Origin: Actinomycetes bacterium
GTDB taxonomy: Bacteria > Actinomycetota > Acidimicrobiia > Acidimicrobiales > Bog-793
Direction of reading: 5' to 3'
NCBI GenBank assembly: GCA_021798985.1
Contig: JAJZBI010000011.1
Span: 23,775-87,774 of the forward strand
DNA length: 64,000 nucleotides
Shown here: one piece after another, positions 38,873-64,000 of the stretch
Numbering within the stretch: position 1 is the first letter of the stretch
Layout: every line of letters starts with the position of its first letter
Made by a program: the position numbers and the translations under genes
Notes under the pieces: generated by a model
Told to the model about the DNA's origin: nothing
What the model saw: only the letters and a program-made list of their open reading frames with translations
Databases searched by the model: none

Positions 38873-39007
38873 TGACGCCAGTCCCCGGGCGAGGGACCTT
38901 TGGCCCCCTCACCGTTTCCTGCGCGCCCGTAGCGTCGCCCGCGACGGGCTTGCACACCTCGCCACGTGCCGGCTCGTGGAGCCCGAGGGCGGCAGGGAGC
39001 GGAGGCG

Positions 39008-39541
39008 ATGACGAGCGCAACAGCGGACGCCGTCGGGGCCAGGGGCACGCCAGGGGTGCCAGCGGGCCCAGCGCATCCAAGCGAGGACCGGCGCTGGCGC
39101 CAGGTCGACGTGCGGATCCGCCGGCTCGGGGCCCGGCCCGACGGCCTCATCGAGGTGCTCCACACCCTCCAGCAGCTCTTCGGCTACCTCGATGACGACG
39201 CGCTTGCCTATGTGAGCGAGGCGCTCGGGGTGCCGCCCAGCCAGGTGATGGGCGTAGCGACCTTCTACTCGTTCTTCGTTTTGAAGCCTCAGGGCGCCCA
39301 CACCTGCGTCGTGTGCACCGGGACCGCCTGCTACCTGAACGGCGCGAAGGCGATCCTGCGGGCGCTTCGCGAGGCCCTTGGCGTCGAGGTCGGCGGGACC
39401 ACCGCGGACGCGAGCCTCTCGCTGCTCGGCGCTCGCTGCCTCGGCGCCTGCTCGCAGGCACCCGCCGTGGTGCTCGACGGCGAGGTGCACGGCAAGGTGC
39501 TTGCCGAGGAGATCACCGCACTGGTGGCGAGCCATGCCTGA
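39008..39541 (+). CDS. hoxE: bidirectional [NiFe] hydrogenase diaphorase subunit HoxE (NuoE-like 2Fe-2S)
   Basis: ATG 39008 follows GGAGG. Thioredoxin-like 2Fe-2S motifs CTGTAC...CLGAC. Confidence 0.88.
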
Positions 39542-41198
39542 GCCCGACGACGCCCCGGCCCGAGCGCGCCACCACGAGCCTGTGCTCCCCGAGGGCCCGG
39601 TGCGTGCCACGGCGAACGTCTGCCACGCCGCCGGATGCCTCTCGCTCGGCTCCGACCTCGTCTTCGACCGCCTCTGCGAACGCGTCGAGGCGTCGGGCAC
39701 CGACGACGTGGGGGTGCGCCGGGTCGGCTGTCTCGGCCTGTGCGCGCAGGGCCCGCTCGTGAAGGTGCCCGAGCACGACCGCCTCTATGCCAAGGTGCCC
39801 GCCGAGCCCGACGAGCTCGATCAGCTCGTGGAGCAGTTCCGCTCGGGGACCGGCGGCCTCGTCGTCTCCGAGGACCCCTTCTTCGCCCGCCAGGTCAAGG
39901 TGGTCCTCCGCCACTGCGGGTCGGTCGATCCCGAGGAGGTCGAGGACTACGTCGCCAAGGGGGGATACGCGGCGCTGCGCAGGGCGGTGACGGAGATGAC
40001 CCCCGAGGAGGTCGTCGCTGAGGTCACCGAGAGCGGGCTGCGCGGGCGCGGCGGTGCCGGCTACCCGACCGGCCTCAAGTGGGCGACCGTCGCCAAGTCC
40101 GGCGAGGGCGGCCACAAGTACGTGGTCTGCAACGCCGATGAGGGGGATCCGGGGGCCTTCATGGACCGCAGCGTGCTCGAGAGCTGCCCGCAACAGGTGC
40201 TCGAGGGCATGGCGATCGCCGCCTATGCCGTCGGCGCCAACGAGGGCTACGTGTACGTGCGCGCCGAGTACCCCCTTACGGTCCGGCGGCTCAACTCGGC
40301 GATCCGCCAGGCCGAGCGCGCCGGGCTGCTCGGCACGGCGATTGCCGACACGAGCTTCTCGTTCCACCTCGAGGTGCGCATCGGTGCCGGGGCCTTCGTC
40401 TGTGGCGAGGAGACCGCCTTGTTGGCCTCGATCGAGGGTCGGCGGGGGACGCCCCGGCCGCGCCCGCCCTATCCCGCCGCCGCAGGGCTGTTCGGCGAGC
40501 CGACGCTCATCAACAACGTCGAGACCTTCGCCAGCATCTCGGCGATCATCGAGCGCGGCGGGCGGTGGTACGCGGCGATCGGCGCCAACAAGAGCCGCGG
40601 GACCAAGGTCTTCGCGCTCGCCGGGGCGGTCGAGCGCACCGGGCTGATCGAGGTGCCGATGGGCCTCAGCCTGCGCCAGATCGTCTTCGAGATCGGCGGC
40701 GGCGTGCCCGGCGGGCACCGCTGCAAGGCCGTGCAGACCGGCGGCCCCTCGGGAGGCTGCATCCCCGAGGAGCTGCTCGACATGCCGGTCGACTACGAGT
40801 CCCTCGTGAGCGCCGGGTCGATCATGGGCTCTGGCGGCATGATCGTGATGGACGAGACGACCTGCATGGTCGACGTCGCCCGCTACTTCATGGACTTTTG
40901 CCGAGAGGAGTCCTGCAGCCGGTGCGTCCCCTGCCGGGCGGGAACCGTCCAGATGCACCGGCTGCTCGATCGCATCTGCTCGGGCCTCGCCACCCGCGCC
41001 GACCTCGAGCGCCTCGAGCGCCTTGCGGCGATGGTCCAGCGCGCGAGCCTGTGCGGCCTCGGCCAGGGCGCGCCGAGCACCGTGTTCTCGACGCTCCGCT
41101 ACTTCAAGGACGAATACCTCGCCCACATCGATCACCGGACGTGCCCGGCCGGGGTGTGCGAGATGGCCCCGTTTGAGATGGCGGGGAGTGGACGATGA
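39534..41198 (+). CDS. hoxF: diaphorase subunit HoxF (NuoF-like, FMN/NAD(P)H)
   Basis: ATG 39534 overlaps the hoxE end by 8 nt. [23 protein letters not shown] and an N-terminal 2Fe-2S domain. Confidence 0.92.
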
Positions 41199-41899
41199 GC
41201 GTCGTCACGCTGGTGATCGACGGGCACGACGTCGCCGGTCAGAGCGGCCAGAGCATCTTGTCGGTAGCGCGCGAACACGGCATCGCCATCCCAACGCTGT
41301 GCCATCTCGATGGGCTCTCGGAGGTGGGCGCGTGCCGCCTGTGCATGGTCGAGGTGCGGGGGGCGAGGCGCCCGCTCGCCGCCTGCGTCACCGAGGTGCA
41401 AGAGCACATGGAGGTGACGACCACCACCGACGAGCTCACCGACTACCGCCGCCAGATCATCGAGCTGTTGTTCACCGAGCGCAATCACGTCTGCGCCGTC
41501 TGCATCGCCAACCGGCACTGCGAGCTGCAAGACCTCGCCAAGGCGCTCGGGATGACGCACTTCGACCTGCCGGCGCTCAATCCGTCCGCCGGCGTGGACG
41601 CCAGCCACGAGCGCTTCGGGATCGACCACAACCGCTGCGTGCTCTGCACGCGATGCGTGCGCGTCTGCGCCGAGATCGAAGGAGCCCATACCTGGGACGT
41701 GCGCGGCCGGGCCAGCGAGGCGAGGGTGATCACCGACCTCGGCACCCCCTGGGGAGAGTCGCCCACCTGCACGAGCTGTGGCAAGTGCGTCCAGGTGTGC
41801 CCGACCGGAGCGCTGTTTGAGAAGGGTCGGGCGGTCGCCGAAGGCAAGGAGCGGCGCCCCTACGTCCCCTTCCTCGTCGCAAGGAACCGGAGGTCTTGA
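41195..41899 (+). CDS. hoxU: diaphorase subunit HoxU (NuoG N-terminal-like Fe-S protein)
   Basis: ATGA overlap. 2Fe-2S (CHLDGL..GACRLC) and 4Fe-4S ([23 protein letters not shown]) motifs. Confidence 0.9.
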
Positions 41900-41900
41900 G

Positions 41901-42431
41901 ATGGCAAAGCCGCGGCTCGCCACGATTTGGCTGGACGGCTGCTCTGGCTGTCACATGTCCTTCCTCGACCTCGACGAGCGCCTCTTCGACGTCTTCGCCC
42001 GCGCCGAGCTCGTCTATGGTCCCCTGGTCGACGCCAAGGAGTTCCCCGAGGATGTCGACGTCACGCTCGTCGAGGGCGCCGTCAGCACCGAGGACGACCT
42101 GCGTCGGGTGCGCGAGGTGCGCGCCAAGACCAAGATCCTCGTCTCGCTCGGCGACTGTGCGGTGACGGCGAACGTCCCGGGCATGCGCAACCCGCTCGGC
42201 CCGAAGGCGATCTTGGAGACCGCCTACGCGAGCGGCGTCACGGGCGCGTCGGCGGCGCCGAGCGAATGGGTCCCGGCGCTGCTCGAGCGCGTGCAGCCCG
42301 TGCACGCGGTTGTGCCGGTCGACGTGTACCTGCCGGGGTGCCCGCCCTCGGCCGACGTGATCGCCGAGGCGATCGACCAGCTGCTCGCCGGTCAGCTGCC
42401 TGACACCGCGCACCTGGCGAGCTTCGGCTGA
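41901..42431 (+). CDS. hoxY: [NiFe] hydrogenase small subunit HoxY
   Basis: ATG 41901, 1 nt after the hoxU stop. WLDGCSGCHMSFLD proximal-cluster motif and GCPP. Confidence 0.9.
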   Translation: MAKPRLATIWLDGCSGCHMSFLDLDERLFDVFARAELVYGPLVDAKEFPEDVDVTLVEGAVSTEDDLRRVREVRAKTKILVSLGDCAVTANVPGMRNPLGPKAILETAYASGVTGASAAPSEWVPALLERVQPVHAVVPVDVYLPGCPPSADVIAEAIDQLLAGQLPDTAHLASFG

Positions 42432-42450
42432 GCCGGACAAGGACGATGCG

Positions 42451-43869
42451 ATGAGCGAGATCATCATCGAGCCGGTCACAAGGATCGAGGGCCACTCCAA
42501 GATCACGGTGCAGCTCGACGACACCGGCGAGGTCGTCGACGCCCACTTCCACGTGACCCAGTTCCGCGGCTTCGAGCGGATCTGCGTGGGCCGCCCGCTC
42601 TGGGAGATGCCCTCACTGATGGCGCGCATCTGCGGCATCTGCCCCGTCAGCCATCTGATCGCGTCAGCGAAGGCCTGCGACGAGATCCTCGCCGTCGAGA
42701 TCCCTCCGCTGGCACGCCGGCTGCGGCGCGTCATGAACCTGGCGCAGATCGTGCAATCCCATGCCCTGAACTTCTTCCATCTCTCCTCGGCTGACCTCGT
42801 CTTCGGCTTCGACGGGGACCCGAAGGAGCGCTCCTTCGCGGGGGTGGCCGAAGCCGCCCCCGAGCTCGCTCGCGACGGCGTGGCGCTGCGGCGCTTCGGC
42901 CAGCAGATCATCGAGCGGCTCGGCGGCAAGCGCATCCACCCGGCCTGGGTCGTTCCCGGCGGGGTGAGCCGCCCGCTCGAGGCCGCCCAGCGCGACGCGA
43001 TCCTCGCCGAGGTGCCCGACGCGAGAGCACGAGCCAAGCGGGCCCTTGGCTGGTACAAGGAGCACCTCGCTCGCTTTGCCGAAGAAGCGGACCAGTTCGG
43101 CAACTTCCCGAGCCTGTTCATGGGGCTCGTGCACGAGAGCGGGCGGGCTGCTTATTCCGAAGGCTTGTTGAAGGTGGTCGACGCCAATGGCTGGGTGCTG
43201 GCGGACCAGGTCGATCCCAGGCCGTATTGGGAGTATCTCGGCGAGCACGTCGAGCCGTGGAGCTATCTGAAATCGCCGTATTTCAAGCCGCTCGGCTACC
43301 CCGATGGCCTCTACCGGGTCGGTCCGCTCGCCCGGCTGAACGTCATCGACCGGCTCGGGACTCCGAGCGCGGACGGCGAGCTCGCCGAGTACCGCGAGCG
43401 GCTCGGCCGCTATCCCCAGAGCTCGTTCCACTACCACTGGGCACGGCTCATCGAGATCGTGCACTGCATCGATGCAATCGAGCACATCCTCTCCGAGCCG
43501 GACATCTTGGACCACCACGTTCGCGCCGAGGCGCGCGTCAACCGCAACGAGGGAGTCGGCGTTGCCGAGGCGCCGAGGGGGACGCTCATCCACCACTACC
43601 AAGTGGACGACCACGGCCTCGTCGAGTCCGCCAACCTCGTCATCGCGACCGGCCACAACAACCTGGCGATGAACGCCGCGGTGAAGCAGGTGGCCCGCCA
43701 CTACGTCCACGGCCCGGACGTGGCCGAAGGGATCTTGAACCGGATGGAGGCGGCCATCCGCTGTTTTGACCCCTGCCTCAGCTGCTCGACGCATGCGATC
43801 GGACAGATGCCGCTTGCGATCGAACTGCGCGCCCCCGACGGCACGATCGTGCGCGAGGTGGCGCGGTGA
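42451..43869 (+). CDS. hoxH: [NiFe] hydrogenase large subunit HoxH (group 3d type)
   Basis: L1 RICGICPVSH and L2 DPCLSCSTH, followed by a 24-aa C-terminal extension. Confidence 0.93.
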   Translation: MSEIIIEPVTRIEGHSKITVQLDDTGEVVDAHFHVTQFRGFERICVGRPLWEMPSLMARICGICPVSHLIASAKACDEILAVEIPPLARRLRRVMNLAQIVQSHALNFFHLSSADLVFGFDGDPKERSFAGVAEAAPELARDGVALRRFGQQIIERLGGKRIHPAWVVPGGVSRPLEAAQRDAILAEVPDARARAKRALGWYKEHLARFAEEADQFGNFPSLFMGLVHESGRAAYSEGLLKVVDANGWVLADQVDPRPYWEYLGEHVEPWSYLKSPYFKPLGYPDGLYRVGPLARLNVIDRLGTPSADGELAEYRERLGRYPQSSFHYHWARLIEIVHCIDAIEHILSEPDILDHHVRAEARVNRNEGVGVAEAPRGTLIHHYQVDDHGLVESANLVIATGHNNLAMNAAVKQVARHYVHGPDVAEGILNRMEAAIRCFDPCLSCSTHAIGQMPLAIELRAPDGTIVREVAR

Positions 43870-44357
43870 GCGCGCCAGCGCCTGCTCCGACCCGCGACCG
43901 TCTCGCCGGGCTCGTCGTGGTAGGCGTCGGTAACGAGCTGCGCCGCGACGACGGCATTGGTGTCGCCGTCGCCCGGGCGCTGTCGGGCTCGTTCGGCGAG
44001 CTCGGGGCGCGCGTCGTGCTCTTGCACCAGCTCGTGCCGGAGCTGGCAGCGGAACTCACCGGCGCACAGGCCGTGATCTTTCTCGACGCGGCGGTCGATC
44101 TCCCGCCGGGTGCGGTGCGCGTCGCGACCCCTGCCCCGGGGAAGGTGCCGGGGTCCGCGACCCACCAGACAGAGCCCGACGCGCTCGTCGATTTGTGCGC
44201 GGCGCTGTATGGAACGAGGCCCGCGGCGATGATCGTGTCCGTCGGGGCCGCAGATCTCGAAGCGGGGGTCGGGCTCAGCACGGCTGCCCGCCAAGGTTGC
44301 GAACGCGCGGGCGAGATCGTCCGCGCCCTCGCTGAGGAGATGATCGCCGATGCATGA
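43866..44357 (+). CDS. hoxW: hydrogenase maturation endopeptidase (HoxW/HyaD family)
   Basis: GTGA overlap. VVGVGNELRRDDGIGV motif. Confidence 0.85.
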   Translation: MSAPAPAPTRDRLAGLVVVGVGNELRRDDGIGVAVARALSGSFGELGARVVLLHQLVPELAAELTGAQAVIFLDAAVDLPPGAVRVATPAPGKVPGSATHQTEPDALVDLCAALYGTRPAAMIVSVGAADLEAGVGLSTAARQGCERAGEIVRALAEEMIADA

Positions 44358-44682
44358 GTACTCGCTTGTGACCGAGCTGGTGGAAGAGTGCCAGCGGCGC
44401 GCCGGGTCGCGCCGGGTGCGCAGTGTCACGGTGCGATGCCCCTCGACCGTTGACCGGGTCGAGCTGAAGACGCTGTTCGCTGCGGCCTCGGCGGAGCACC
44501 ACATGGCCGGTGCGCGCCTTGAGATCGAGACGGTGGCAACTCTGTGGCACTGCACGTGTGGCTACGAGGGGGAGCTTCCGCCCGAGGCGCGCGTGGGTCA
44601 CCTGGCGGTGTGCCCGCGCTGCAGTTCCGTGCAACCGCTCGAGGACGCCCTCGAGCTGGTCGCCGTGGATACCGAGACCTAG
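44350..44682 (+). CDS. hypA: hydrogenase nickel-insertion protein HypA
   Basis: MHEYSL N-terminus (Ni site) and a CTCG...CPRC zinc site. It overlaps hoxW by 8 nt. Confidence 0.88.
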   Translation: MHEYSLVTELVEECQRRAGSRRVRSVTVRCPSTVDRVELKTLFAAASAEHHMAGARLEIETVATLWHCTCGYEGELPPEARVGHLAVCPRCSSVQPLEDALELVAVDTET

Positions 44683-44723
44683 GGAGACCTTCGCCGAAGC
44701 GGCGAAGGTCCAAGCGCCCTAGG
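44678..44723 (+). terminator. extended hairpin between hypA and nifJ
   Basis: GACCTTCGCCG-aag-CGGCGAAGGTC perfect 11-bp stem (44686-44710), flanked by CCTAGGG/CCCTAGG (44678-44684 / 44717-44723). There is no U-tract. Confidence 0.4.
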
Positions 44724-44776
44724 CGCCGATGCTCGGCCGGCGATACACCGGGACGAGCCACCCGAGGAGGCATGGC

Positions 44777-47700
44777 GTGAACAGCCCACAGCGCATCTGT
44801 GTCGACGGGAACGAGGCGGCGGCGCGGGTCGCCTACCAGCTGGCCGAGGTGGTCGCGCTCTACCCGATCACCCCGTCGTCTCCGATGGGAGAGCATGCTG
44901 ACGACTGGGCGGCGGCGGGCACGCCGAACCTGTTCGGCCAGGTGCCCGCCATCGTCGAGATGCAGTCCGAAGCCGGCGCTGCCGGAGCGCTGCACGGCGC
45001 CCTGCAGAAGGGCGCGCTCGCCACCACCTTCACGGCCTCCCAGGGGCTGTTGTTGATGTTGCCGAACATGTTCAAGATCGCCGGCGAGCTGCTGCCGACG
45101 GTGATCCACGTGGCGGCGCGCAGCATCGCCACCCACGCGCTGTCGATCTTCGGGGACCACTCCGACGTGATGGCGGCGCGGGCGACGGGCTTTGGGATGC
45201 TCGCGTCCTCCTCGGTCCAAGAGGCACAAGATCTCGCTGCCATCGCCCACCTCGCGACGCTGCGCTCGCGCGTGCCGTTCCTGCACTTCTTCGACGGCTT
45301 CCGGACCTCCCACGAGGTGGCGACGATCGTGCCGCTTCAGCCTGGTGATCTCGAGGCGCTGGTGGACCGCGAGGCGATCCGCGCCATGCGCCTGCGCGGC
45401 ATGAGCCCCGACCGCCCCGATGTGCGGGGCACCGCGCAGAACCCCGACGTCTTCTTCCAAGGCCGCGAGGCCGCCGCGCCCTACCACGCCCGGGTGCCTG
45501 CGATCGTGACGGCGGCGATGGACGCCTTCGAGCGTCGCTGTGGTCGGCATTACGCCGTGGTCGAGTACCACGGCGCCCCCGACGCCGAGCGCGTCGTCGT
45601 GGCGATGGGGTCGGGATGCGGGGCGATCGAAGAGGCGGTCGACACCTTGGTGGCGCGGGGCGAGCGGCTCGGGCTGTGCAAGGTACGCTTGTACCGTCCC
45701 TTCCCCGCGGGCGAGTTCGTCGCTGCCCTGCCGCCGAGCGTGCGGGCGATCGCAGTCCTCGATCGCACCAAGGAGCCCGGTGCGGTCGGCGAGCCCCTCT
45801 ACCTCGATGTGCGCGCCGCCATCGACGAGGCGATGGAGCACACCGAGGCGCCCTTTGTGGTCGCCCCGAAGGTGATCGGCGGCCGCTATGGGCTGTCGTC
45901 CAAGGAGTTCACCCCACCGATGGCCAAGGCCGTCTTCGACGAGCTCGCTGCCGCCTCCCCCAAGGCGCACTTCAGCGTCGGGATCGACGACGACGTCTCG
46001 TCCTCGAGCCTTGCCGTAGACCCCGACTTTCGCGTGGAGATCGCCGAAGCGCCCTTCCAGGCGGTCTTCGCCGGCCTCGGTTCGGACGGGACGGTGGGGG
46101 CGAACAAGAACAGCGCCCGCATCATCGCCGCCCACGGTGATACGAACGTGCAGGCCTATTTCGTCTACGACTCGAAGAAGTCCGGATCGATCACGATCTC
46201 GCACCTTCGATTCGGCCCCCGGCCGATCAATTCGAGCTACCTCATCGACGAGGCGGATTTCGTCGCCTGCCACCAGTTCAATCTGCTCGAGCGGGCCAAG
46301 GTGCTCGACATCGCGCGACCGGGCGCGACCTTGCTGTTGAACAGCCCGTACCGTGCGGAGGAGACCTGGCACGCGCTGTCGGCGCGCGCCCAGCGCCAGA
46401 TCCTCGACAAGAAGCTCCGCTGCTTTGTGATCGACGCCCACCAGATCGCGAGCGAGCACGGCCTCGGCACGCGGATCAACACCGTCATGCAGGTCTGCTT
46501 CTTCGCCCTCAGCGAGCTGATGCCGATCGAACAGGCCGTGGCGGCAATCAAGGCGGCGATCGAGCGCAGCTATGGTCGCCGGGGCCCCGAGGTCGTCGCG
46601 CGCAACTTCGCTGCGGTGGATGCTGCGCTGGCCGGCTTGCAGCCGCTCGAGACACCGATGCGGTTCGCGGCGGAGCCGGCGCCGCCGCGAGCTCCCGAGG
46701 ACCGCTTCGCCGGGGCGCCGGACTTCGTCCGTGAGGTGACGGCGGTCTTGCTCGCCGACGACGGGGACCGCCTGCCGGTCTCGGCGATGCCGCCCGACGG
46801 CCGTTTCCCCTCGGGCACGGCGCGCTACGAGCGTCGGGCGATCGCCAGCGAGATCCCGATCTGGGACCCCTCGCTGTGCACGGACTGCGGCAAGTGCGCC
46901 ATCGTCTGCCCGCACGCCGCGATCCGCATGAAGGTCTTCGAGCCCGACGCGATCACCGGCGCGCCCGACGGGTTTCTCGCCAAGCCCTTCCGTTCGAAGG
47001 ACCTCGCCGGGCACCTGCTCAGCATCCAGGTGGCGCCGGACGACTGCACGGGATGTGGGATCTGCGTCGAGGTCTGCCCGGCGCACTCCAAGACCGAGGC
47101 GTGGAGGAAGTCGATCAATCTCGAGCCGGCGCTCGCGCACCGCGACGAGGAGCGGGTGCGCTGGGACTTCTTCAAATCGATCCCCGAGCTTGCCCGCGAC
47201 GCCCTGCCGCACGACAGCGTGAAGGGCGCGGCGGTCCTCGAGCCGCTCTTTGAGTTCTCTGGCGCCTGCGCGGGGTGTGGCGAGACCCCCTACCTCAAAC
47301 TGTTGAGCCAGCTCTTCGGCGACCGGCTGCTCGTCGCCAACGCGACGGGGTGCTCGTCGATCTACGGCGGCAATCTCCCGACCACGCCGTGGGCGCACGA
47401 CGCGTCGGGCCGCGGACCGGCGTGGGCGAACTCGCTGTTCGAGGACAACGCCGAGTTTGGCCTCGGCATCCGCCTCGGCCTCGAGGCCGAACAGCGCGCG
47501 GCACGCGACCTGCTCGTCGGACTCGCCCCCGAGCTCGACGCCGAGCTCGTCGCCGGTCTGTTGCACGCGAGCCAGGAAGGCGAGGCCGACATCGTTGCGC
47601 AGCGGGCGCGGGTGGCCGAGCTAAAGCGCCAGCTTTCCGGCCTCGGCGGCGAGCGCGCCGAGGCGGCCTCGGACCTGCTGGCGTGCGCCGACGAGCTCGT

Positions 47701-48412
47701 CGACAAGTCGGTGTGGATCGTCGGCGGAGACGGCTGGGCCTATGACATCGGCTTCGGCGGCCTCGACCACGTCCTTGCCTCGGGGCGCAACGTCAACGTC
47801 TTGGTGCTCGATACCGAGGTCTACTCCAACACCGGTGGGCAGGCGTCCAAGGCCACGCCGCGCGGCGCCGTGGCGAAGTTCGCGGCCTCGGGCAAGATCA
47901 CCGCGAAGAAGGACCTCGGGGAGATCGCGCGGGCCTACGGCGACGTCTACGTGGCCCAGGTGGCCCTCGGCGCGAGCGACATCCAGACGATCAAGGCGCT
48001 CCTCGAGGCGAACGCCCATCCCGGCCCCTCCCTCGTGATCGCGTACTCGACGTGCATCGCGCACGGCATCGACATGGCGACCTCGATGGCGCACCAGCGT
48101 GACGCGGTGCGCAGCGGGTACTGGCCGCTGTATCGCTACCGGCCGACGACGGCGAGCGAGGGGCATCCCTTCAGCCTCGACGCGAAGGATCCGAGCGTCC
48201 CGATCGCCGACTTCGTCAAGAGCGAGGTTCGCTACGCCTCCCTTGCCCGGAGCGACCCCGCGCGCGCCAGCGAGCTGGTGGAGCTGCTGCAGCAAGACAC
48301 CGAGGAGCGCTGGCGTTACTACCGCCAGCTGGCGGGGCTGGAGCGGACGATGCACGAGCCGGACGCCGAACTTTCGGCCGGCAGGGTCCAGGTGATCGAG
48401 GAGGAGCAGTGA
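44777..48412 (+). CDS. nifJ: pyruvate:ferredoxin (flavodoxin) oxidoreductase, monomeric NifJ/PFOR type
   Basis: GTG 44777, 6 nt after GAGGAGG. About 1211 aa with PFOR domains I-VII. Internal 2x CxxCxxCxxxCP and a TPP GDG motif (GGDGWAYDIG). Confidence 0.95.
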   Translation: MNSPQRICVDGNEAAARVAYQLAEVVALYPITPSSPMGEHADDWAAAGTPNLFGQVPAIVEMQSEAGAAGALHGALQKGALATTFTASQGLLLMLPNMFKIAGELLPTVIHVAARSIATHALSIFGDHSDVMAARATGFGMLASSSVQEAQDLAAIAHLATLRSRVPFLHFFDGFRTSHEVATIVPLQPGDLEALVDREAIRAMRLRGMSPDRPDVRGTAQNPDVFFQGREAAAPYHARVPAIVTAAMDAFERRCGRHYAVVEYHGAPDAERVVVAMGSGCGAIEEAVDTLVARGERLGLCKVRLYRPFPAGEFVAALPPSVRAIAVLDRTKEPGAVGEPLYLDVRAAIDEAMEHTEAPFVVAPKVIGGRYGLSSKEFTPPMAKAVFDELAAASPKAHFSVGIDDDVSSSSLAVDPDFRVEIAEAPFQAVFAGLGSDGTVGANKNSARIIAAHGDTNVQAYFVYDSKKSGSITISHLRFGPRPINSSYLIDEADFVACHQFNLLERAKVLDIARPGATLLLNSPYRAEETWHALSARAQRQILDKKLRCFVIDAHQIASEHGLGTRINTVMQVCFFALSELMPIEQAVAAIKAAIERSYGRRGPEVVARNFAAVDAALAGLQPLETPMRFAAEPAPPRAPEDRFAGAPDFVREVTAVLLADDGDRLPVSAMPPDGRFPSGTARYERRAIASEIPIWDPSLCTDCGKCAIVCPHAAIRMKVFEPDAITGAPDGFLAKPFRSKDLAGHLLSIQVAPDDCTGCGICVEVCPAHSKTEAWRKSINLEPALAHRDEERVRWDFFKSIPELARDALPHDSVKGAAVLEPLFEFSGACAGCGETPYLKLLSQLFGDRLLVANATGCSSIYGGNLPTTPWAHDASGRGPAWANSLFEDNAEFGLGIRLGLEAEQRAARDLLVGLAPELDAELVAGLLHASQEGEADIVAQRARVAELKRQLSGLGGERAEAASDLLACADELVDKSVWIVGGDGWAYDIGFGGLDHVLASGRNVNVLVLDTEVYSNTGGQASKATPRGAVAKFAASGKITAKKDLGEIARAYGDVYVAQVALGASDIQTIKALLEANAHPGPSLVIAYSTCIAHGIDMATSMAHQRDAVRSGYWPLYRYRPTTASEGHPFSLDAKDPSVPIADFVKSEVRYASLARSDPARASELVELLQQDTEERWRYYRQLAGLERTMHEPDAELSAGRVQVIEEEQ

Positions 48413-49458
48413 GCACCGACACGGCGACCACGCGCGAGCAGACCGATCTGTCGACGCGCTATCTCGGGTTGGATCTGTCCTCGCCGATCGTGGCCTCGGC
48501 GAGCCCGATGACCGAGCACGTGGATTCGATCGTGGCGCTCGAGGCTGCCGGGGTCGGCGCCGTCGTCTTGCCGTCGCTGTTCGAGGAGGAGATCCTCGCG
48601 GAAGAGCACATGGTGGACTCCGCCTTCGAGCTCGGGGCTGAGCAGCACTACGAGGCGCGTGGCTACTTCCCGCTGCCGAGCGAGGTGCGAGGGGTGGCGG
48701 AGCGCTACGTGGGCCGGCTCGAGGCCGCCAAGGCCGCCGTGCGCATCCCGGTAATCGCGAGCCTCAACGCCTGGCACGCCGGCGCCTGGAGCCGCTACGG
48801 CCGTCTGCTGGCCGACGCCGGCGCCGACGCCATCGAGCTCAACGTCTATCGCGTCGCGACGAACGAAAAGCTGTCGGCGGCCGAGCTCGAAGCGGCCGAG
48901 CTCGCCTTCATCGCCGAGGTCTGCGAGCGGGCCGGGGTTCCCGTCGCGGTCAAGCTGTCGCCGTTCTACTCCTCCTTTGCCAATTTCGCCGCCAAGGTGG
49001 TGGCCGCCGGGGCGAGCGGGCTCGTGCTCTTCAATCGCTTCTACCAACCCGACCTCGACCTCGAGACCATGGAGGTGCTGCCGAGGGTGCACCTGTCGAG
49101 CAGCACCGAGCTCGGCTTGCCGCTGCGCTGGACGGCGATCTTGCGCCCACAGCTCGGTGAGGAGGTCTCCTTGGCGGCGAGCTCAGGGGTCGAGCACGGC
49201 AGCGACGTGGCGAAGCTGATCGCGGCGGGAGCCGACGTCGTCATGGTGGCCTCCGAGCTGCTGCGCAGCGGTGCGCGCGGGGCAGCCACGCTCGAGGCAT
49301 CGCTGCGCGACGCGATGGAGCTGACCGGCCACGCCACACTCGCCGAGCTGCACGGCTGTGCCAGCCGCGCCAGCGCGCCCCGCGGCGAGGCGTTCGAGCG
49401 GGCGCAGTACGTGAGGACGCTGCGGTCCTGGGGGGCAGGGCTCACCGGCCATCGGTGA
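48409..49458 (+). CDS. dihydroorotate dehydrogenase-like flavoprotein (PyrD-family TIM barrel, function unknown)
   Basis: GTGA overlap with the nifJ stop. N-terminus DLSTRYLGLDLSSPIVASASP...AVVLPSLFEEEI is typical of the 'DHOD-like protein' family. Confidence 0.8.
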   Translation: MSTDTATTREQTDLSTRYLGLDLSSPIVASASPMTEHVDSIVALEAAGVGAVVLPSLFEEEILAEEHMVDSAFELGAEQHYEARGYFPLPSEVRGVAERYVGRLEAAKAAVRIPVIASLNAWHAGAWSRYGRLLADAGADAIELNVYRVATNEKLSAAELEAAELAFIAEVCERAGVPVAVKLSPFYSSFANFAAKVVAAGASGLVLFNRFYQPDLDLETMEVLPRVHLSSSTELGLPLRWTAILRPQLGEEVSLAASSGVEHGSDVAKLIAAGADVVMVASELLRSGARGAATLEASLRDAMELTGHATLAELHGCASRASAPRGEAFERAQYVRTLRSWGAGLTGHR

Positions 49459-49481
49459 AGACAGAGGCAAAAGGAGCGGAG

Positions 49482-49715
49482 ATGAAGGTGTGGATCGACC
49501 AGGAGTACTGCACGGGTGACGGGCTGTGCGAGGAGCTGTGCCCGGCGATGTTCCAGCTCGAGGACGACGGTTTGGCCTACGTCAGGGAGAACGGCGTCGT
49601 CCCGAGCGACCGCGCGGGGCGCGAGGCGATGGTTGTCGTCTCAGGTGAAGACGAGGAAGCGGTGCGCGAGGCGGCACAAGAGTGCGCCGGGGAGTGCATC
49701 TTCATTGAGGAGTGA
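49482..49715 (+). CDS. single-cluster ferredoxin (CxxDxxC...CP type)
   Basis: ATG 49482 follows AAAGGAG. CTGDGLCEELCP plus a distal C-terminal Cys. 77 aa, with an acidic C-terminus. Confidence 0.85.
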   Translation: MKVWIDQEYCTGDGLCEELCPAMFQLEDDGLAYVRENGVVPSDRAGREAMVVVSGEDEEAVREAAQECAGECIFIEE

Positions 49716-49722
49716 GGCTCGG

Positions 49723-49746
49723 GGCGGCGCGGCGCGCCGCGCCGCT
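49723..49746. terminator. GC palindrome between convergent ferredoxin and cNMP-binding genes
   Basis: GGCGCGGC-GC-GCCGCGCC perfect palindrome (49726-49743), extended by flanking pairs. Confidence 0.4.
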
Positions 49747-49754
49747 CGGCGCGC

Positions 49755-50345
49755 TCAGGCGTCGGTGCGCTCTTGACTGAGCTCCGCCAGCCGCCAGCGC
49801 GTGGCCTGCAGTCGCTCGAGCAGCAGCGCGCTCACCCGGGACATGAGGGCGTAGCCGAAGTCCCGGTCGCGCTCGGCAAGGGTGCGTAGGCTGTTCGCGT
49901 CGACGGCGATCGCGCGGACCGGGCCGATGGCGCGGGCGTCGAAGTGCCAGCGGTAGGGGGGGAACAGCCACGACCAGCCGAGCGCGGCGCCGGGCCCGAG
50001 CGTCTCGATGCGGATCCTCCCGTTGCCGAACTGGGCGGACTCGAGCGCAACGTGGCCGCGGCGGATGAAGTAGAGCGCGTCCGCGGGCTCGCCTTCGGTG
50101 AGCAACAGTCGCCCCCCGCCGAAGTCGACCGTCGTCGTGAACCCGGAGATGGCGTCGGCGACGTCGCCGGGGAGGTCCGACAACAGCGGGTGCATGGCCA
50201 CGATCTCGGGCAAGGTGCGCGCCCCGGCGCCGTCGAAGATCCCACCGGTGGCGCTCGGGCGCCCCTCGGTTTCGAAGGGGTCTTCGAGGGAATCGAAGGC
50301 GACTGCCTCGCCGATGAGGTCGCGGATCGAACGCTTGACAGACAT
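49755..50345 (-). CDS. cyclic-nucleotide-binding domain protein without a recognisable DNA-binding domain
   Basis: ATG 50345. cNMP beta-barrel (LLLTEGEPADALYFIRRGHVAL...RIETLGPGAALGWSWL). No C-terminal HTH is visible. Confidence 0.75.
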   Translation of the reverse strand: MSVKRSIRDLIGEAVAFDSLEDPFETEGRPSATGGIFDGAGARTLPEIVAMHPLLSDLPGDVADAISGFTTTVDFGGGRLLLTEGEPADALYFIRRGHVALESAQFGNGRIRIETLGPGAALGWSWLFPPYRWHFDARAIGPVRAIAVDANSLRTLAERDRDFGYALMSRVSALLLERLQATRWRLAELSQERTDA

Positions 50346-50584
50346 GGATCGATCATGTCGCCATGGCAACTGCAAGGAATGGGCCGATGGTGGCTTGATG
50401 CGCGGCCGAATGTCGGCGGGCGTATGGCTCCATTGAGGCCTTGTGTCTCCGGCACGGTGACCTTCGCCCCTTACGAGTTCGCGCCTTCGGGCGCATCGTG
50501 ACCCGGGAAGCGTTGATGGCCTCTTCCACCAGGCGCTTGTAGTGCCGCGAGCGGGCACTGCCCGCGGCCCGAAAGGAGCGGCAG

Positions 50585-51589
50585 ATGACGATCAAGATCG
50601 GCATCAACGGCTTTGGGAGAACGGGACGGGCGCTGTATCGGGCGATCCTCGAGCGCCACTTGTACATGGAGGTCGTCGCGATCAACGATCTCGACGACCC
50701 TCAGTCGCTGACCCGCCTGCTGCGGGCGGACTCGGTGCACGGCCCGTACCGTGCGCCGCTACGGCTCGAGGGGGACCAGCTTGTCACCGAGCATCAGCAC
50801 ACGCGGTTCCTGCGCGAGCCAGACAGCACCCAGCTCCCCTGGAAAGAGCTGGGGGTGCAGGTGGTGGCTGAGTGCACGGGGACCGTCTCGACGCGAAGCG
50901 ATGCCGCCCGGCACCTCGAGGCGGGAGCCGAGCGGGTCGTCGTCTCGGCGCCCTGTGAGGATGCCGATGCCACCTTCGTCCTCGGGGTCAACGAGGAGCG
51001 CTTCGATCCCCTTTCCCATTACGTCGTCTCGAACGGCTCGTGCACGACCAATTGCGTGGCGCTGCTCGCCAAGGTGCTCGACGAGTCCTTCGGGATCGAC
51101 TCAGGCCTGATGACGACGGTGCACGCCTACACGAGTGACCAGGCGCTCCTTGACCGCCTGCACGACGACCCACGCCGCGGCCGCGCGGCGGCACTGAACA
51201 TCGTCCCCACGACGACGCGGGCCGCCCGGACGACCGGTCGCGTCCTGCCCTCGCTCGCCGGTCGCATGGACGGAGCGGCGCTGCGCGTGCCCGTCGCCGA
51301 TGGCTCGATCGTGGACCTCGTCGCGCTGGTGGAGCACGCGGTCCGCCCCGAAGAGGTCAACGAGGCCTTCCGCTCCGCCGCGGAGGGGCGCCTCGGGCAC
51401 GTCCTCGGCTACAGCGAGGAGCCGCTCGTCTCGAGCGACATCCTCGGCGATCCTGCGTCGTGCGTCTTCGACCCGTCGCTCACGCTCGTGCAGGGACGCC
51501 TCGTCAAGGTCTTCGGTTGGTACGACAACGAGTGGGGCTACTCGAACCGCCTCGCAGAGCTCTGCGCGTTGCTTGCGTCCCGCGGTTGA
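50585..51589 (+). CDS. gap: type I glyceraldehyde-3-phosphate dehydrogenase
   Basis: INGFGRTGR, the SNGSCTTNC catalytic Cys motif and WYDNEWGYS. Confidence 0.95.
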   Translation: MTIKIGINGFGRTGRALYRAILERHLYMEVVAINDLDDPQSLTRLLRADSVHGPYRAPLRLEGDQLVTEHQHTRFLREPDSTQLPWKELGVQVVAECTGTVSTRSDAARHLEAGAERVVVSAPCEDADATFVLGVNEERFDPLSHYVVSNGSCTTNCVALLAKVLDESFGIDSGLMTTVHAYTSDQALLDRLHDDPRRGRAAALNIVPTTTRAARTTGRVLPSLAGRMDGAALRVPVADGSIVDLVALVEHAVRPEEVNEAFRSAAEGRLGHVLGYSEEPLVSSDILGDPASCVFDPSLTLVQGRLVKVFGWYDNEWGYSNRLAELCALLASRG

Positions 51590-61652: not shown

Positions 61653-63296
61653 TCAGTTCGCCTCGGGAACGAGGTCGATGGCCCCGCACGGGCACTCCTC
61701 GACGCAGATCCCGCAGCCCTTGCAGTAGTCGTAGTTGAAGGCGTAGCGGCGGCCGCCTGCGGCCTGCGTCTCGCGATCGGTCAGCTTGACCACGGCGTTG
61801 TCCGGGCAGACGCCGAAGCAGTTGTCGCACTCAAAGCAGTTGCCGCACGACAGGCAGCGGCGCGCCTCGAACAGGGCGGTGTCCTCATTGAGGCCGCCCA
61901 CGACCTCAGCGAAGGTGTCGACGCGGCGCGCGGCGGCGAGCTCGGGGCGGCGGCTCCTCGGCGCGTCGTCGTAGTACCAGGTGTTCAGGCGCTCGAGGCT
62001 CGCGAGGCCATGGCGCTCGGGTGCGAGGCGCGTCCCTCCCGCCAGGTAGGCGTCGATCGCCCGGGCGGCGCGCTTCGCGTGGCCGATGGCCACGGTGGCG
62101 GTGCGCGCGGAGGGCACGGCGTCGCCGCCGGCGAATATCCCCACCTCGCCGGTCATCATCGACGGGCCGACCTCGACCACGCCGTGGCGAACGGCGATGT
62201 GCTCGGCGCCCTCGACGACGGACAGGTCGCTGTCCTGGCCGAGCGCCAGCACCAGCGCGTCCGCTGGGAGCTGCTCGAACTCACCGGTCGGCACCACCTT
62301 GCCGTCTTCGAGGACGACCTTTTCGATGACGAGGTGATCGCCCTCGAACGAGTCGACGGTCGAGAGCCAGCGCGTGGTGATCCCCTCGGTCAAGGCCTGA
62401 TCGAGCTCCTCGCGCTCGGCCGGCATCTCCTTGTCGGTGCGGCGGTAGACGATGACCGTCTCGGTCGCCCCGAGGCGCCGCGCCGTCCGGGCGGCGTCCA
62501 TCGCCGTATTGCCGCCGCCATAGACGGCGACGCGGCGACCGAGCAGCACGGGGCGGTCCTCCTCGACGCTGCGGAGCAGCGACAGGGCATCCACGATCCG
62601 GGCGGAGTCGCCCGCCGGGATCTCGATCCTCCGGCCGAGCTGGGCCCCGACGGCGAGGTAGGCGGCGTCGTAGCCTCCCGCCTCCCGTTCGGCGACGACG
62701 TCTTCGACACGGTGGTTCGGGATCCACTGCACCCCGAGGGCGAAGATCCGCTCGATCTCGGCGTCGAGGACGGCGCGGGGGAGGCGGTAGGCGGGGATGC
62801 CGTAGCGCATCATCCCGCCGGGCTTGGCTGCGCTGTCGACTAGATCGACGCGGTGGCCGAGGCGCCGGAGGTGGTAGGAGGCTGCCAGCCCAGACGGCCC
62901 GGCGCCGACGACAAGGACGCGGCGCCCGGTCTCGCGGGTTTGCGCGTCGAAGCCAAAACCCTTTTCGATGGCCAGATCGCCGAGGAAGCGCTCGACGGCG
63001 TTGATGCCGACCGCCTCGTCGACCTGGGCGCGGTTGCAGGCCGTCTCGCAGGGGTGGTAGCAGATCCGGCCCATGATCGCCGGCAGCGGGTTCTCCTCCA
63101 CCAGCTGGCGCCAGGCGGCTTCGTAGTCTCCGGACTCGGCGTGATAGAGCCAGCGCTGGATGTTCTCGCCGGCGGGGCAGGCATCGTTGCACGGCGGCAG
63201 GCGGTCCACGTAGACGGGGCGCTCGACGCGCCAGGTGCCCGTGCGGTTGGCGTGGCTCGTGCCGACCTCGAGCGTGATGGCAAAGGGGTGCTCCAT
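61653..63296 (-). CDS. chimeric OFOR delta subunit: PorD-type N-terminus and 2x[4Fe-4S] C-terminus interrupted by a GltD/NfnB-like FAD-NAD(P)H module
   Basis: NRTGTWRVERPVY; CNDACPAGENIQRW and GRICYHPCETACNR; VLVVGAGPSGLAAS and VAVYGGGNTAMDAA Rossmann folds; CLSCGNCFECDNCFGVCP and FNYDYCKGCGICVEECP. The start overlaps the porB stop by 1 nt. Confidence 0.8.
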   Translation of the reverse strand: MEHPFAITLEVGTSHANRTGTWRVERPVYVDRLPPCNDACPAGENIQRWLYHAESGDYEAAWRQLVEENPLPAIMGRICYHPCETACNRAQVDEAVGINAVERFLGDLAIEKGFGFDAQTRETGRRVLVVGAGPSGLAASYHLRRLGHRVDLVDSAAKPGGMMRYGIPAYRLPRAVLDAEIERIFALGVQWIPNHRVEDVVAEREAGGYDAAYLAVGAQLGRRIEIPAGDSARIVDALSLLRSVEEDRPVLLGRRVAVYGGGNTAMDAARTARRLGATETVIVYRRTDKEMPAEREELDQALTEGITTRWLSTVDSFEGDHLVIEKVVLEDGKVVPTGEFEQLPADALVLALGQDSDLSVVEGAEHIAVRHGVVEVGPSMMTGEVGIFAGGDAVPSARTATVAIGHAKRAARAIDAYLAGGTRLAPERHGLASLERLNTWYYDDAPRSRRPELAAARRVDTFAEVVGGLNEDTALFEARRCLSCGNCFECDNCFGVCPDNAVVKLTDRETQAAGGRRYAFNYDYCKGCGICVEECPCGAIDLVPEAN

Positions 63297-64000
63297 CAGT
63301 CCTCCACGACCTCGGGCGCCTCGGCGCTGGTCGGCTCCAGCAGGCCGTAGCGGGCAATGTTGGCTTCGGCTAGCGCCTGCAGTTGGTCGATCACGTCGGA
63401 GTGGTCACCTTTGAACAGATGCGCGTAGCGGCGCTGGGCCTGTAGGTACTCGACGACTGGCGCCTTGTGGCGGATCTTTGCAACCGAGACCACCTCACCG
63501 TGTTCGGCCTCAAAGACCGGGAAGATCCCCGTCTCCTTGGCGAGCCGGGCGAGGCGGATGGTGTCTTTGGACGCAGCGCCCCAACCGAGCGGGCAGGGGA
63601 CGAGCACGTGCAGGTAGCGGGCGCCGCGATGGGCCATCGCCCGGATCGTCTTGGCCTCGAGGTCGTGCAGGTCGGCGACCGTGGCCGTGGCGACGTAGGA
63701 GATCTCGTGCGCCATCGCGATGCGCGGGAGGTCCTTTCCTTGGCCAAAGGCATTACCCGGCGCCGGGCCCACCGCCTCGGTCGTCGCGGTGCGCGCCGCG
63801 GGTGGGGTTGCGCCCGAGCGCTGTACCCCGGTGTTCATGTAGGCCTCGTTGTCGTAGCAGACGTACAAGACGTCGTCGTTGCGCTCGAACATTCCCGACA
63901 AGGTGCCGAACCCGATGTCGACCGTGCCGCCGTCGCCACCCTGGGCCACGACGCGCACGTCGTCGCGCCCCTTGGCCCGCATCGCCGCGGCGACACCGGT
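63296..64000 (-). CDS. porB: 2-oxoacid:ferredoxin oxidoreductase beta (TPP-binding) subunit, 3' part (gene continues beyond window)
   Basis: The frame is open to the window end. GGDGGTVDIGF TPP motif and CYDNEAYMNTG, a PorB-type C-terminus. Confidence 0.85.
   Translation of the reverse strand, partial: TGVAAAMRAKGRDDVRVVAQGGDGGTVDIGFGTLSGMFERNDDVLYVCYDNEAYMNTGVQRSGATPPAARTATTEAVGPAPGNAFGQGKDLPRIAMAHEISYVATATVADLHDLEAKTIRAMAHRGARYLHVLVPCPLGWGAASKDTIRLARLAKETGIFPVFEAEHGEVVSVAKIRHKAPVVEYLQAQRRYAHLFKGDHSDVIDQLQALAEANIARYGLLEPTSAEAPEVVED

Follow-up and report, generated by a model that had tools for sequence, protein, structure and literature searches.

Genes for proteins related to dihydroorotate dehydrogenase (DHOD) have been reported beside nifJ, the gene of pyruvate:ferredoxin (flavodoxin) oxidoreductase (PFOR), in two bacterial systems. 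In a transcriptome study of Synechocystis, transcription unit TU3296 comprises sll0741 (nifJ), sll0743 and sll0744, the last of which is named "dihydroorotate dehydrogenase (fumarate)", and its genes are transiently induced together when the cells enter microoxic conditions (PMC11368403). A pan-genome study of Propionibacterium places the PFOR gene between a GltD-like and a DHOD-like gene, describes co-transcription and co-regulation of all three, and puts forward, as a hypothesis, an Nfn-like bifurcating complex (PMC7650540). Here we analyse a 64,000-nucleotide stretch of actinobacterial DNA (from contig JAJZBI010000011.1, hereafter the window) in which nifJ is directly followed by the gene of a 349-aa DHOD-like protein, the main subject of this work. 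The gene pair has already been described in the two papers and the protein family, NF005741, is catalogued; a function was not established there, and full-text literature searches found no functional study of the family. We note that Synechocystis sll0744 is probably a member, as judged by its annotation and operon position, not by its sequence.

Two better-known systems offer points of comparison. In dihydropyrimidine dehydrogenase (DPD) a series of [4Fe-4S] clusters supplies the flavin mononucleotide (FMN) with electrons, and the enzyme can serve as a model for a PFOR that feeds a DHOD-like barrel. The pyruvate:NADP+ oxidoreductase of Euglena and Cryptosporidium is a PFOR fused to a flavoprotein reductase, i.e. 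a PFOR with a dedicated flavoprotein electron exit. The fused module is of the diflavin P450 reductase-like type, with FMN, flavin adenine dinucleotide and NADPH sites, whereas in the window the putative partner is a DHOD-fold barrel on its own and lacks a nucleotide-binding domain.

By its sequence the 349-aa protein clearly belongs to NF005741 / PRK07565 ("dihydroorotate dehydrogenase-like protein"). The full-length profile match scored 371.2 bits at a cut-off of 303, with residues 12-340 lying on profile positions 2-328 of 335. The family is large: clustering at 90% identity gave more than 8000 groups and clustering at 50% identity (E <= 1e-30) gave 1527, almost all of the latter single-domain proteins of 320-345 aa, and there were matches in at least about 600 species genomes. 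The window protein resembles the other members in its single domain, in its place directly downstream of nifJ and in its above-cut-off match over the full length (about 335 aa). It differs from them in the 12 residues before the core, in Pro55 (Tyr or His in the others) and in the ferredoxin gene that follows it. In other words, it is an ordinary family member in a typical position, and the interest lies in the family, not in the locus.

The link to nifJ was examined in the 80 best genome loci with 10-kb flanks, chosen by similarity to the actinobacterial query and belonging to Chloroflexota, Actinomycetota, Verrucomicrobiota, Cyanobacteriota, Bacteroidota and relatives, Acidobacteriota, Gemmatimonadota, Deinococcota and others. 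A full PFOR gene stands immediately upstream on the same strand in 77 of the 80 loci, i.e. in 77 of the 78 that could be tested, since two of the remaining three end before the upstream DNA and the third (L055) is a true exception. The adjacency that the original prediction assumed is therefore conserved, and over more than ten phyla. Between the PFOR stop and the conserved core there are 25 nt in the median, and at most 150 nt in 71 of the 77 loci; an ATG, GTG or TTG at -4, which gives the same 4-nt overlap as in the window, is found in at least 20 of them. The overlap is also present in a Gloeobacterales locus (L073), in which the DHOD-like gene ends normally and is followed by pfk. The adjacent pair also occurs on plasmids of Phenylobacterium and Methylovirgula. 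Beyond the pair itself no cluster of open reading frames (ORFs) was common to more than 19 of the 81 regions compared; the looser repeat neighbours are hox/hyp, ppsA or pyruvate phosphate dikinase, pfk, ldh, Zn-dependent alcohol dehydrogenase, universal stress protein and two-component regulator genes. The arrangement of nifJ and the DHOD-like gene is more than chance.

The three sequence statements of the original prediction, on the overlap, the ferredoxin and the missing PyrK and Fe-S domain, all hold. The nifJ stop codon TGA occupies 48410-48412 and the GTG of the DHOD-like gene 48409-48411, so the GTGA overlap is as it had been described. This GTG is the sole ATG, GTG or TTG start 5' of the conserved core (residue 13 onward), and the 4-nt overlap is thus not an arbitrary choice of start. 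The motif GAGGAGGAG, which lies within the last PFOR codons, could be used as the ribosome-binding site of the DHOD-like gene. The DHOD-like gene is probably carried on the PFOR mRNA, and translational coupling would keep its output in step with that of PFOR. The PFOR itself is a canonical one: its profile score was 1662 bits (TIGR02176, cut-off 911), the single chain carries the POR_N, PFOR_II, POR, EKR, 2x[4Fe-4S] and thiamine diphosphate-binding parts according to Pfam, and residues 24-1202 align with the Moorella thermoacetica PFOR structure 6CIN at 1340 bits.

The automated names would make the protein an ordinary dihydroorotate or dihydropyrimidine dehydrogenase that lies beside nifJ by chance. 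Relatives are named "dihydroorotate dehydrogenase (fumarate)" automatically by JGI, and Pfam also gave a match to DHO_dh (38.7 bits), one of two weak matches, the other being FMN_dh. The more specific models do not point in this direction, as all PyrD and PreA equivalog models remained at 19-53 bits with cut-offs of 200-366: PRK07259 scored 52.6 bits (cut-off 269), archaeal PyrD 46.6 (330), TIGR01037 38.7 (270), TIGR01036 19.1 (200), the PRK05286 models 27 at most (341-433) and the PreA model 51.3 (335). An alpha-hydroxyacid oxidase was considered as well, FMN_dh being the top Pfam match, but this match is confined to the C-terminal phosphate-binding part, and the family has no invariant His.

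The AlphaFold2 model of the protein is a (beta/alpha)8 barrel with a predicted local distance difference test score (pLDDT) of 83. In a Foldseek comparison with the PDB it came closest to DHODs of class 1A and to the FMN domain of DPD from pig (template modelling score, TM, 0.65-0.76; 16-20% identity). No solved structure of any member of the family was found by sequence search. Residues were mapped onto Lactococcus lactis DHODA and DHODB with HMMER, onto Escherichia coli PreA with hhalign, and onto an 85-sequence alignment of the family that spans more than ten phyla at 31-55% identity. The core residues of the flavin side are retained: K182, N145, N209 and G260 are invariant in the 85 sequences and S282 is present in 83 of them, and these correspond to K164, N127, N193, G250 and T272 of DHODA, respectively. 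The substrate side, in contrast, has been rebuilt. The catalytic Cys of DHODA (Cys130), DHODB (Cys135) and PreA aligns with R148, a column that is mostly Y, H, R, F or S and never Cys, and the preceding residue, Ser in the DHODs, is Tyr (Tyr147 in the window protein) in 84 of the 85 sequences. DHODA K43, which is K574 in DPD, aligns with P55 in a column of Y, P, H, F or T that never holds Lys.

The N-x-x-G-x-x-N substrate loop (NSMGLPN) is exchanged for an acidic segment, residues 56-95, which opens with the invariant S56-x-F58-E59-E60 and has a net charge of -8; in the model its residues 61-90 have pLDDT values of 45-54. The elements SxFEE, SxN, ELNxY, K182, FNRFYQPD, W241 and R331, all of them present in the window protein, are invariant or conserved to at least 95% in the 85 sequences, and F208-N-R-F-Y-Q-P-D215, W241 and R331 are new invariants. 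The full signature of the family in the window protein consists of S56, F58, E59, E60, S118, N120, E143, N145, Y147, K182, F208-D215, S230, W241, G260, K269, G274 and R331. In a number of members (P0290, P0292, P0315, P0317, P0320 and others), 300-316 aa in length, the profile is matched in two stretches and the part before profile position 90 is shorter by about 25-30 residues, i.e. the acidic segment is shortened in some lineages. A quinone-linked reading of the extra segment is not supported, since it is acidic; the quinone-binding helices of class 2 DHODs are hydrophobic.

Compared with the known enzymes, the protein shares with class 1A and 1B DHODs the ELN motif, the Lys of VKLSP and the N of "NT", and these enzymes are its best structural matches (TM up to 0.76). 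It differs from them in that ELN-x-S-C-P-N is changed to ELN-x-Y-x-[VIL]-[PA], in that PyrK is missing, and in the low identity noted above. With domain IV of pig DPD and with E. coli PreA it shares the fold and several FMN contacts (hhalign probability 98.5% over 289 columns). In comparison with these enzymes it has neither the C-terminal 2x[4Fe-4S] domain nor a PreT partner, equivalents of Cys671 and Lys574 are missing, and where DPD has its pyrimidine-binding loop the protein has the acidic segment, about 40 residues long. The missing PyrK and the missing Fe-S domain had been pointed out from the DNA alone, and both observations hold: no PyrK-like gene is present from hoxF to the ferredoxin gene, and the protein has two Cys, neither of which is conserved, so that no Fe-S cluster or Fe-S domain is expected. 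An N-terminal extension, such as a quinone or membrane domain, and membrane-anchor helices are likewise missing. Copies of the gene lie on accessory plasmids (Acaryochloris, Phenylobacterium, Methylovirgula), which is unlike a housekeeping pyrD. From scores far below the cut-offs, the loss of the catalytic residues and the existence of a family of its own, we conclude that the protein is not a dihydroorotate or dihydropyrimidine dehydrogenase as judged by its sequence. The expectation that it is no ordinary PyrD thus agrees with both the profile scores and the active-site comparison; a chance neighbour of this kind seems extremely improbable to us, and the label "dihydroorotate dehydrogenase (fumarate)" on the family is almost certainly wrong, as far as such comparisons can tell.

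The gene is tightly coupled to nifJ over a wide range of phyla, and the protein has kept the core of the flavin side but rebuilt that of the substrate; on these grounds we propose a flavin protein dedicated to PFOR. The joint induction with nifJ in Synechocystis (PMC11368403) and the co-transcription with the PFOR gene in Propionibacterium (PMC7650540) speak for it too. We give about an even chance to the reading that the DHOD-like protein is a PFOR-dedicated flavin redox partner that passes two electrons to an acceptor. The protein is a probable flavoprotein, and an FMN-based module for the exit or entry of electrons would be the most economical interpretation of the sequence evidence. Flavin binding, contact with PFOR, the direction of the flow and the acceptor are what we infer in the following scheme. 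The FMN-binding core known from DHOD and DPD would be largely kept in the barrel, the rebuilt substrate side has no Cys or Ser base, and the invariant Tyr and the SxFEE/NRFYQPD signature would take the place of the DHOD substrate residues. Electrons from pyruvate oxidation would pass the three [4Fe-4S] clusters of PFOR and reach the flavin of the barrel either directly or via a small ferredoxin, for example that of the neighbouring gene. The route would then parallel DPD and class 1B DHOD, in which an Fe-S chain is joined to FMN. The flavin would gather two electrons and reduce a two-electron acceptor. Members of the family are acidic throughout (median pI 5.0, net charge -15) and in this respect resemble ferredoxin and flavodoxin, the acceptors of PFOR, which is a weak hint of a partnership. 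A more specific form of the proposal, possible and put forward here tentatively, is that the barrel would be a stoichiometric flavin subunit on the ferredoxin-binding face of PFOR, the two forming a two-component "pyruvate:X oxidoreductase" in which X is a two-electron acceptor or O2.

Several observations weigh against a dedicated partner of PFOR. The Lys of the K43/K574 type is Tyr, Pro or His in the family, which leaves some doubt about flavin binding. No fusion to PFOR or to a ferredoxin was present in the 150 best of the 1527 family representatives, and no PFOR docking motif was found in the C-terminal tails of 75 partner-linked PFORs, which are variable and of low complexity. A plasmid collection yielded 40 PFOR-bearing records, of which those of Phenylobacterium and Methylovirgula alone carry the adjacent pair; for the plasmid PFORs of Azospirillum, enterobacteria, Firmicutes and Fusobacterium the replicon encodes no family member. 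As many PFORs are thus without the DHOD-like partner on their replicon, it is not needed for core PFOR activity. Finally, there are members detached from nifJ, in Acaryochloris, Stanieria, Methylocella, Parabacteroides and at L055.

We also considered whether the partner-linked PFORs form a distinct clade, and rejected this: in an identity comparison only, the partner-linked PFORs (53-69% identity to the window PFOR) are like the partnerless ones of Azospirillum (57-58%) and enterobacteria (52-53%). The sole real fusion among the same 150 representatives is a 500-aa protein (P0304) in which an N-terminal response-regulator receiver domain precedes the DHOD-like barrel. It may hint at a barrel activity regulated by phosphorylation in some lineages, and a merge of two genes in gene calling is also possible.

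The detached members have surroundings of their own. On the Acaryochloris plasmid pREB4 (L090) the DHOD-like gene lies beside pfk and hypD, with nifJ 100 kb off on the same plasmid, and on a Stanieria plasmid (L092) it lies beside ldh and ppsA. At L055 it follows ppsA and the genes of an ADP-forming acetyl-CoA synthetase/acetyltransferase, an NAD-linked formate dehydrogenase and focA. On a Methylocella plasmid (L091) it is isolated. A distant Bacteroidales member of 32% identity, named "DHOD-like protein", occurs in Parabacteroides distasonis (L093) and Bacteroides finegoldii (H10) and is not beside nifJ; its neighbours in Parabacteroides are a YggS-family gene and, not far off, the gene of a large FAD-dependent oxidoreductase. 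This distant member may, by its sequence and surroundings, represent a functionally different subfamily.

That the members at Acaryochloris, Stanieria and L055 still stand amid genes of pyruvate and fermentation metabolism would suit a free-standing flavin reductase of a hypoxia or fermentation regulon, which would pass electrons from reduced ferredoxin to an organic electron sink (e.g. an unsaturated acid) and be co-regulated with PFOR without touching it. The invariant charged or polar residues, among them R210, R331, Y212, E60 and Y147, would be suited to a defined small anionic substrate. We nevertheless hold such an enzyme to be fairly unlikely: an overlap of 4 nt or a gap of at most 150 nt over more than ten phyla, with nothing else conserved, is tighter than usual co-regulation, and the acid/base Cys, which class 1A DHODs use for fumarate reduction too, is absent from the family.

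The distribution of the pair raises a further alternative, namely that the protein protects or maintains PFOR, for example by removing O2 near the exposed clusters with PFOR electrons or by serving as a subunit for its stability or maturation. Such a role might not involve redox turnover. The lineages behind most of the 80 loci (Cyanobacteria, Acidimicrobiia, Chloroflexia, Verrucomicrobiota, Acidobacteriota, Gemmatimonadota and Trueperaceae) are by general knowledge mostly aerobic or facultative, 9 loci have universal stress protein genes downstream, and the lack of a partner for the plasmid PFORs of enterobacteria, Firmicutes and Fusobacterium and the loss of the K43-equivalent Lys would fit as well. 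This picture of the lineages is, however, biased by the choice of the loci by similarity to an actinobacterial query, and Anaerolineae, Thermanaerothrix, Caldithrix and Melioribacteraceae carry the pair too. Moreover, strictly invariant residues at the barrel positions of the DHOD active site look like an enzyme site, and we therefore regard a protective role as improbable.

The original prediction went further and saw the building blocks of DPD distributed over two loci of the window, the second being the only GltD-like ORF, near its end. This ORF scored 720 bits with NF009410, and its C-terminal 2x[4Fe-4S] part 64.5 bits with TIGR02179 (cut-off 60). In the metagenome loci of its relatives PorB immediately precedes the fused gene (gltD~porD) in 78 of 80 cases, with PorA-like sequence before it where the DNA suffices, and a DHOD-like gene was present in none of the 80. 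In the reverse direction, a weak GltD-like match within 10 kb was seen in 1 of the 80 DHOD-like loci. The split-DPD idea does not survive these counts: with its fixed porAB partnership and no DHOD-like gene, the GltD-like ORF belongs to a separate conserved module. This module, porA-porB-(gltD~porD), probably encodes an NAD(P)-linked 2-oxoacid oxidoreductase, to judge from its domains. The domain families held in common with DPD reflect the common ancestry of building blocks, not a cooperation between the two loci.

The same counts bear on a reading in which the DHOD-like protein and a GltD-like NAD(P)H protein would be subunits of one multi-flavin complex like Nfn or DPD. The co-transcribed GltD-like and DHOD-like genes that flank the PFOR gene in Propionibacterium (PMC7650540) speak for it, as does the presence in the window of a GltD-like protein with a 2x[4Fe-4S] domain. 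The latter is fused to a PorD delta domain and belongs to porB, not to the DHOD-like gene, and NfnA is PyrK-like, not PyrD-like (PMC12221290). The acidity of the family-specific segment, unlike the hydrophobic helices of class 2 DHODs, is a further point against it, and we consider a complex of this kind very improbable.

Features of the window around the nifJ/DHOD-like pair, with their positions, strands and the basis of each call.
Feature	Position	Strand	Basis or remark
hoxF, hoxU, hoxY, hoxH (42451-43869), hoxW (43866-44357), hypA (44350-44682)	39378..44682	+	gaps of at most 50 nt
nifJ, homodimer-type pyruvate:ferredoxin (flavodoxin) oxidoreductase, 1227 aa	44729..48412	+	TIGR02176, Pfam, 6CIN match
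Putative coupling junction: GAGGAGGAG (48398-48406), then GTGA overlap (48409-48412)	48398..48412	+	direct sequence reading
DHOD-like TIM-barrel protein, 349 aa, NF005741 / PRK07565	48409..49458	+	profile match, fold, residue mapping
Family-specific segment, residues 56-95	48574..48693	+	hhalign, HMMER, conservation, pLDDT, charge
AAAGGAG, predicted ribosome-binding site of the ferredoxin gene	49470..49476	+	direct sequence reading
Single-cluster ferredoxin, 77 aa	49482..49715	+	Pfam Fer4_15, alignment to P. furiosus / T. maritima
GC-rich inverted repeat between the convergent ferredoxin and cNMP-binding genes	49717..49752	.	18-nt arms
Convergent cNMP-binding (Crp/Fnr-like) protein	49755..50558	-	Pfam cNMP_binding, weak FtrB match
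GltD-like protein fused to PorD-type delta domain, 547 aa	61653..63296	-	Fer4_20 + Pyr_redox_2, NF009410, TIGR02179
PorB gene, cut by the window end	63296..63982	-	start of the GltD-like ORF overlaps the PorB stop by 1 nt

The gene that follows the DHOD-like gene encodes a small ferredoxin. The spacer of 23 nt between the DHOD-like stop and the ferredoxin ATG (49459-49481, ATG at 49482) and the length of 77 aa were found as claimed. Homologues begin at the same MKVW, which favours the 77-aa form over an 86-aa form. The protein reads MKVWIDQEYCTGDGLCEELCP...ECAGECIFIEE with the motif C10-x2-D13-x2-C16-x3-C20-P ... C67-x3-C71, and Pfam Fer4_15 matched it with 59.2 bits at a cut-off of 22.4. The Pyrococcus-type pattern, with Asp at the second ligand position, was confirmed by alignment: CTGDGLCEELCP falls on the motif CIGDAICASLCP in the ferredoxin from P. 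furiosus (1SIZ/1SJ1), and C67 on the Cys of the CP motif, the fourth ligand, in that from T. maritima (1VJW). The window protein is like these two ferredoxins (1SJ1, 1VJW) in belonging to the Fer4_15 fold family, and it matches the P. furiosus motif with D14 residue for residue. It is different in that Ala stands after its fourth-ligand Cys, where most homologues have Pro, in that its family ends with C-x3-C-IFIE, and in that the partner Cys of the disulfide of the Pyrococcus and Thermotoga proteins is missing.

The subfamily of this ferredoxin comprises 2334 clusters; among the 120 closest the Asp motif is present in 109 and the C-x3-C-I ending in all. The Asp pattern is therefore a trait of the subfamily, not of this locus. 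Homologues of 64-69% identity occur in unrelated contexts, after groEL and beside proteasome genes, and a small ferredoxin gene lies downstream in 1 of the 80 other DHOD-like loci, with Cys there instead of Asp. The ferredoxin is therefore a general one and, contrary to what had been supposed, not a fixed part of the nifJ/DHOD-like module. Its placement at the end of the hox-nifJ string is lineage-specific, and ferredoxins of this type are named mostly from Acidimicrobiia. Plausibly, it is a carrier between PFOR and hydrogenase.

Upstream of nifJ, the string hoxF/U/Y/H is by its annotation that of a bidirectional NiFe hydrogenase; the calls rest on Pfam for HoxF and HoxU and on TIGR00072 for the HoxW protease. 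From about 38900 to 49715 the genes hoxE(?)-F-U-Y-H, hoxW, hypA, nifJ, the DHOD-like gene and the ferredoxin gene follow one another uninterrupted on the plus strand, and the string from hoxE(?) to the ferredoxin gene encodes a complete pyruvate-to-H2 route. The closest named relatives of the genome with this string are Acidimicrobiales. Three relatives (L081-L083) have an identical gene order with Pfam domains called, plus a hoxE-type gene in first place, and contigs that carry an 88%-identical DHOD-like protein show the order unchanged from hoxE through the cNMP-binding gene. Of the 80 other loci, 7 encode HoxH at no more than 10 kb from the nifJ/DHOD-like pair. In the window, hox, hypA, nifJ, the DHOD-like gene and the ferredoxin gene would thus form a fermentative module that also sends pyruvate electrons to the bidirectional hydrogenase.

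Downstream of the ferredoxin gene, the inverted repeat has a folding energy of -41 kcal/mol with a z-score of only -0.6 relative to shuffled sequence, weak evidence for a possible two-way terminator; a terminator scan gave nothing at 49717-49752, and promoter and terminator scans were uninformative in the GC-rich DNA of the window. The convergent cyclic nucleotide (cNMP)-binding protein is, by its domain, a possible regulator. Its gene is kept in the close relatives L081-L083, and relatives of the protein are also encoded near the nifJ/DHOD-like pair at two further loci (L037 and L056). Beyond it, genes of type I glyceraldehyde-3-phosphate dehydrogenase (50585-51589, plus strand) and phosphoenolpyruvate synthase (51611-54025, plus strand) follow, so that genes of pyruvate metabolism and glycolysis border the hox-to-ferredoxin operon.

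PFOR is central to carbon metabolism under anaerobic and low-oxygen conditions, and cyanobacteria draw on it as the main source of electrons for fermentative H2. If it has a dedicated partner across more than ten phyla, the current pictures of the fate of PFOR electrons, which feed models of H2 yield, of propionibacterial redox balance and of the aerobic use of PFOR, would be incomplete for a large share of bacteria. The family is present in the genetically tractable models Synechocystis and P. freudenreichii. If the "pyruvate:X oxidoreductase" form of the proposal were true, PFOR would have a third electron exit besides ferredoxin and flavodoxin, one used in fermentation or at low oxygen by cyanobacteria, actinobacteria, Chloroflexota, Verrucomicrobiota and others.

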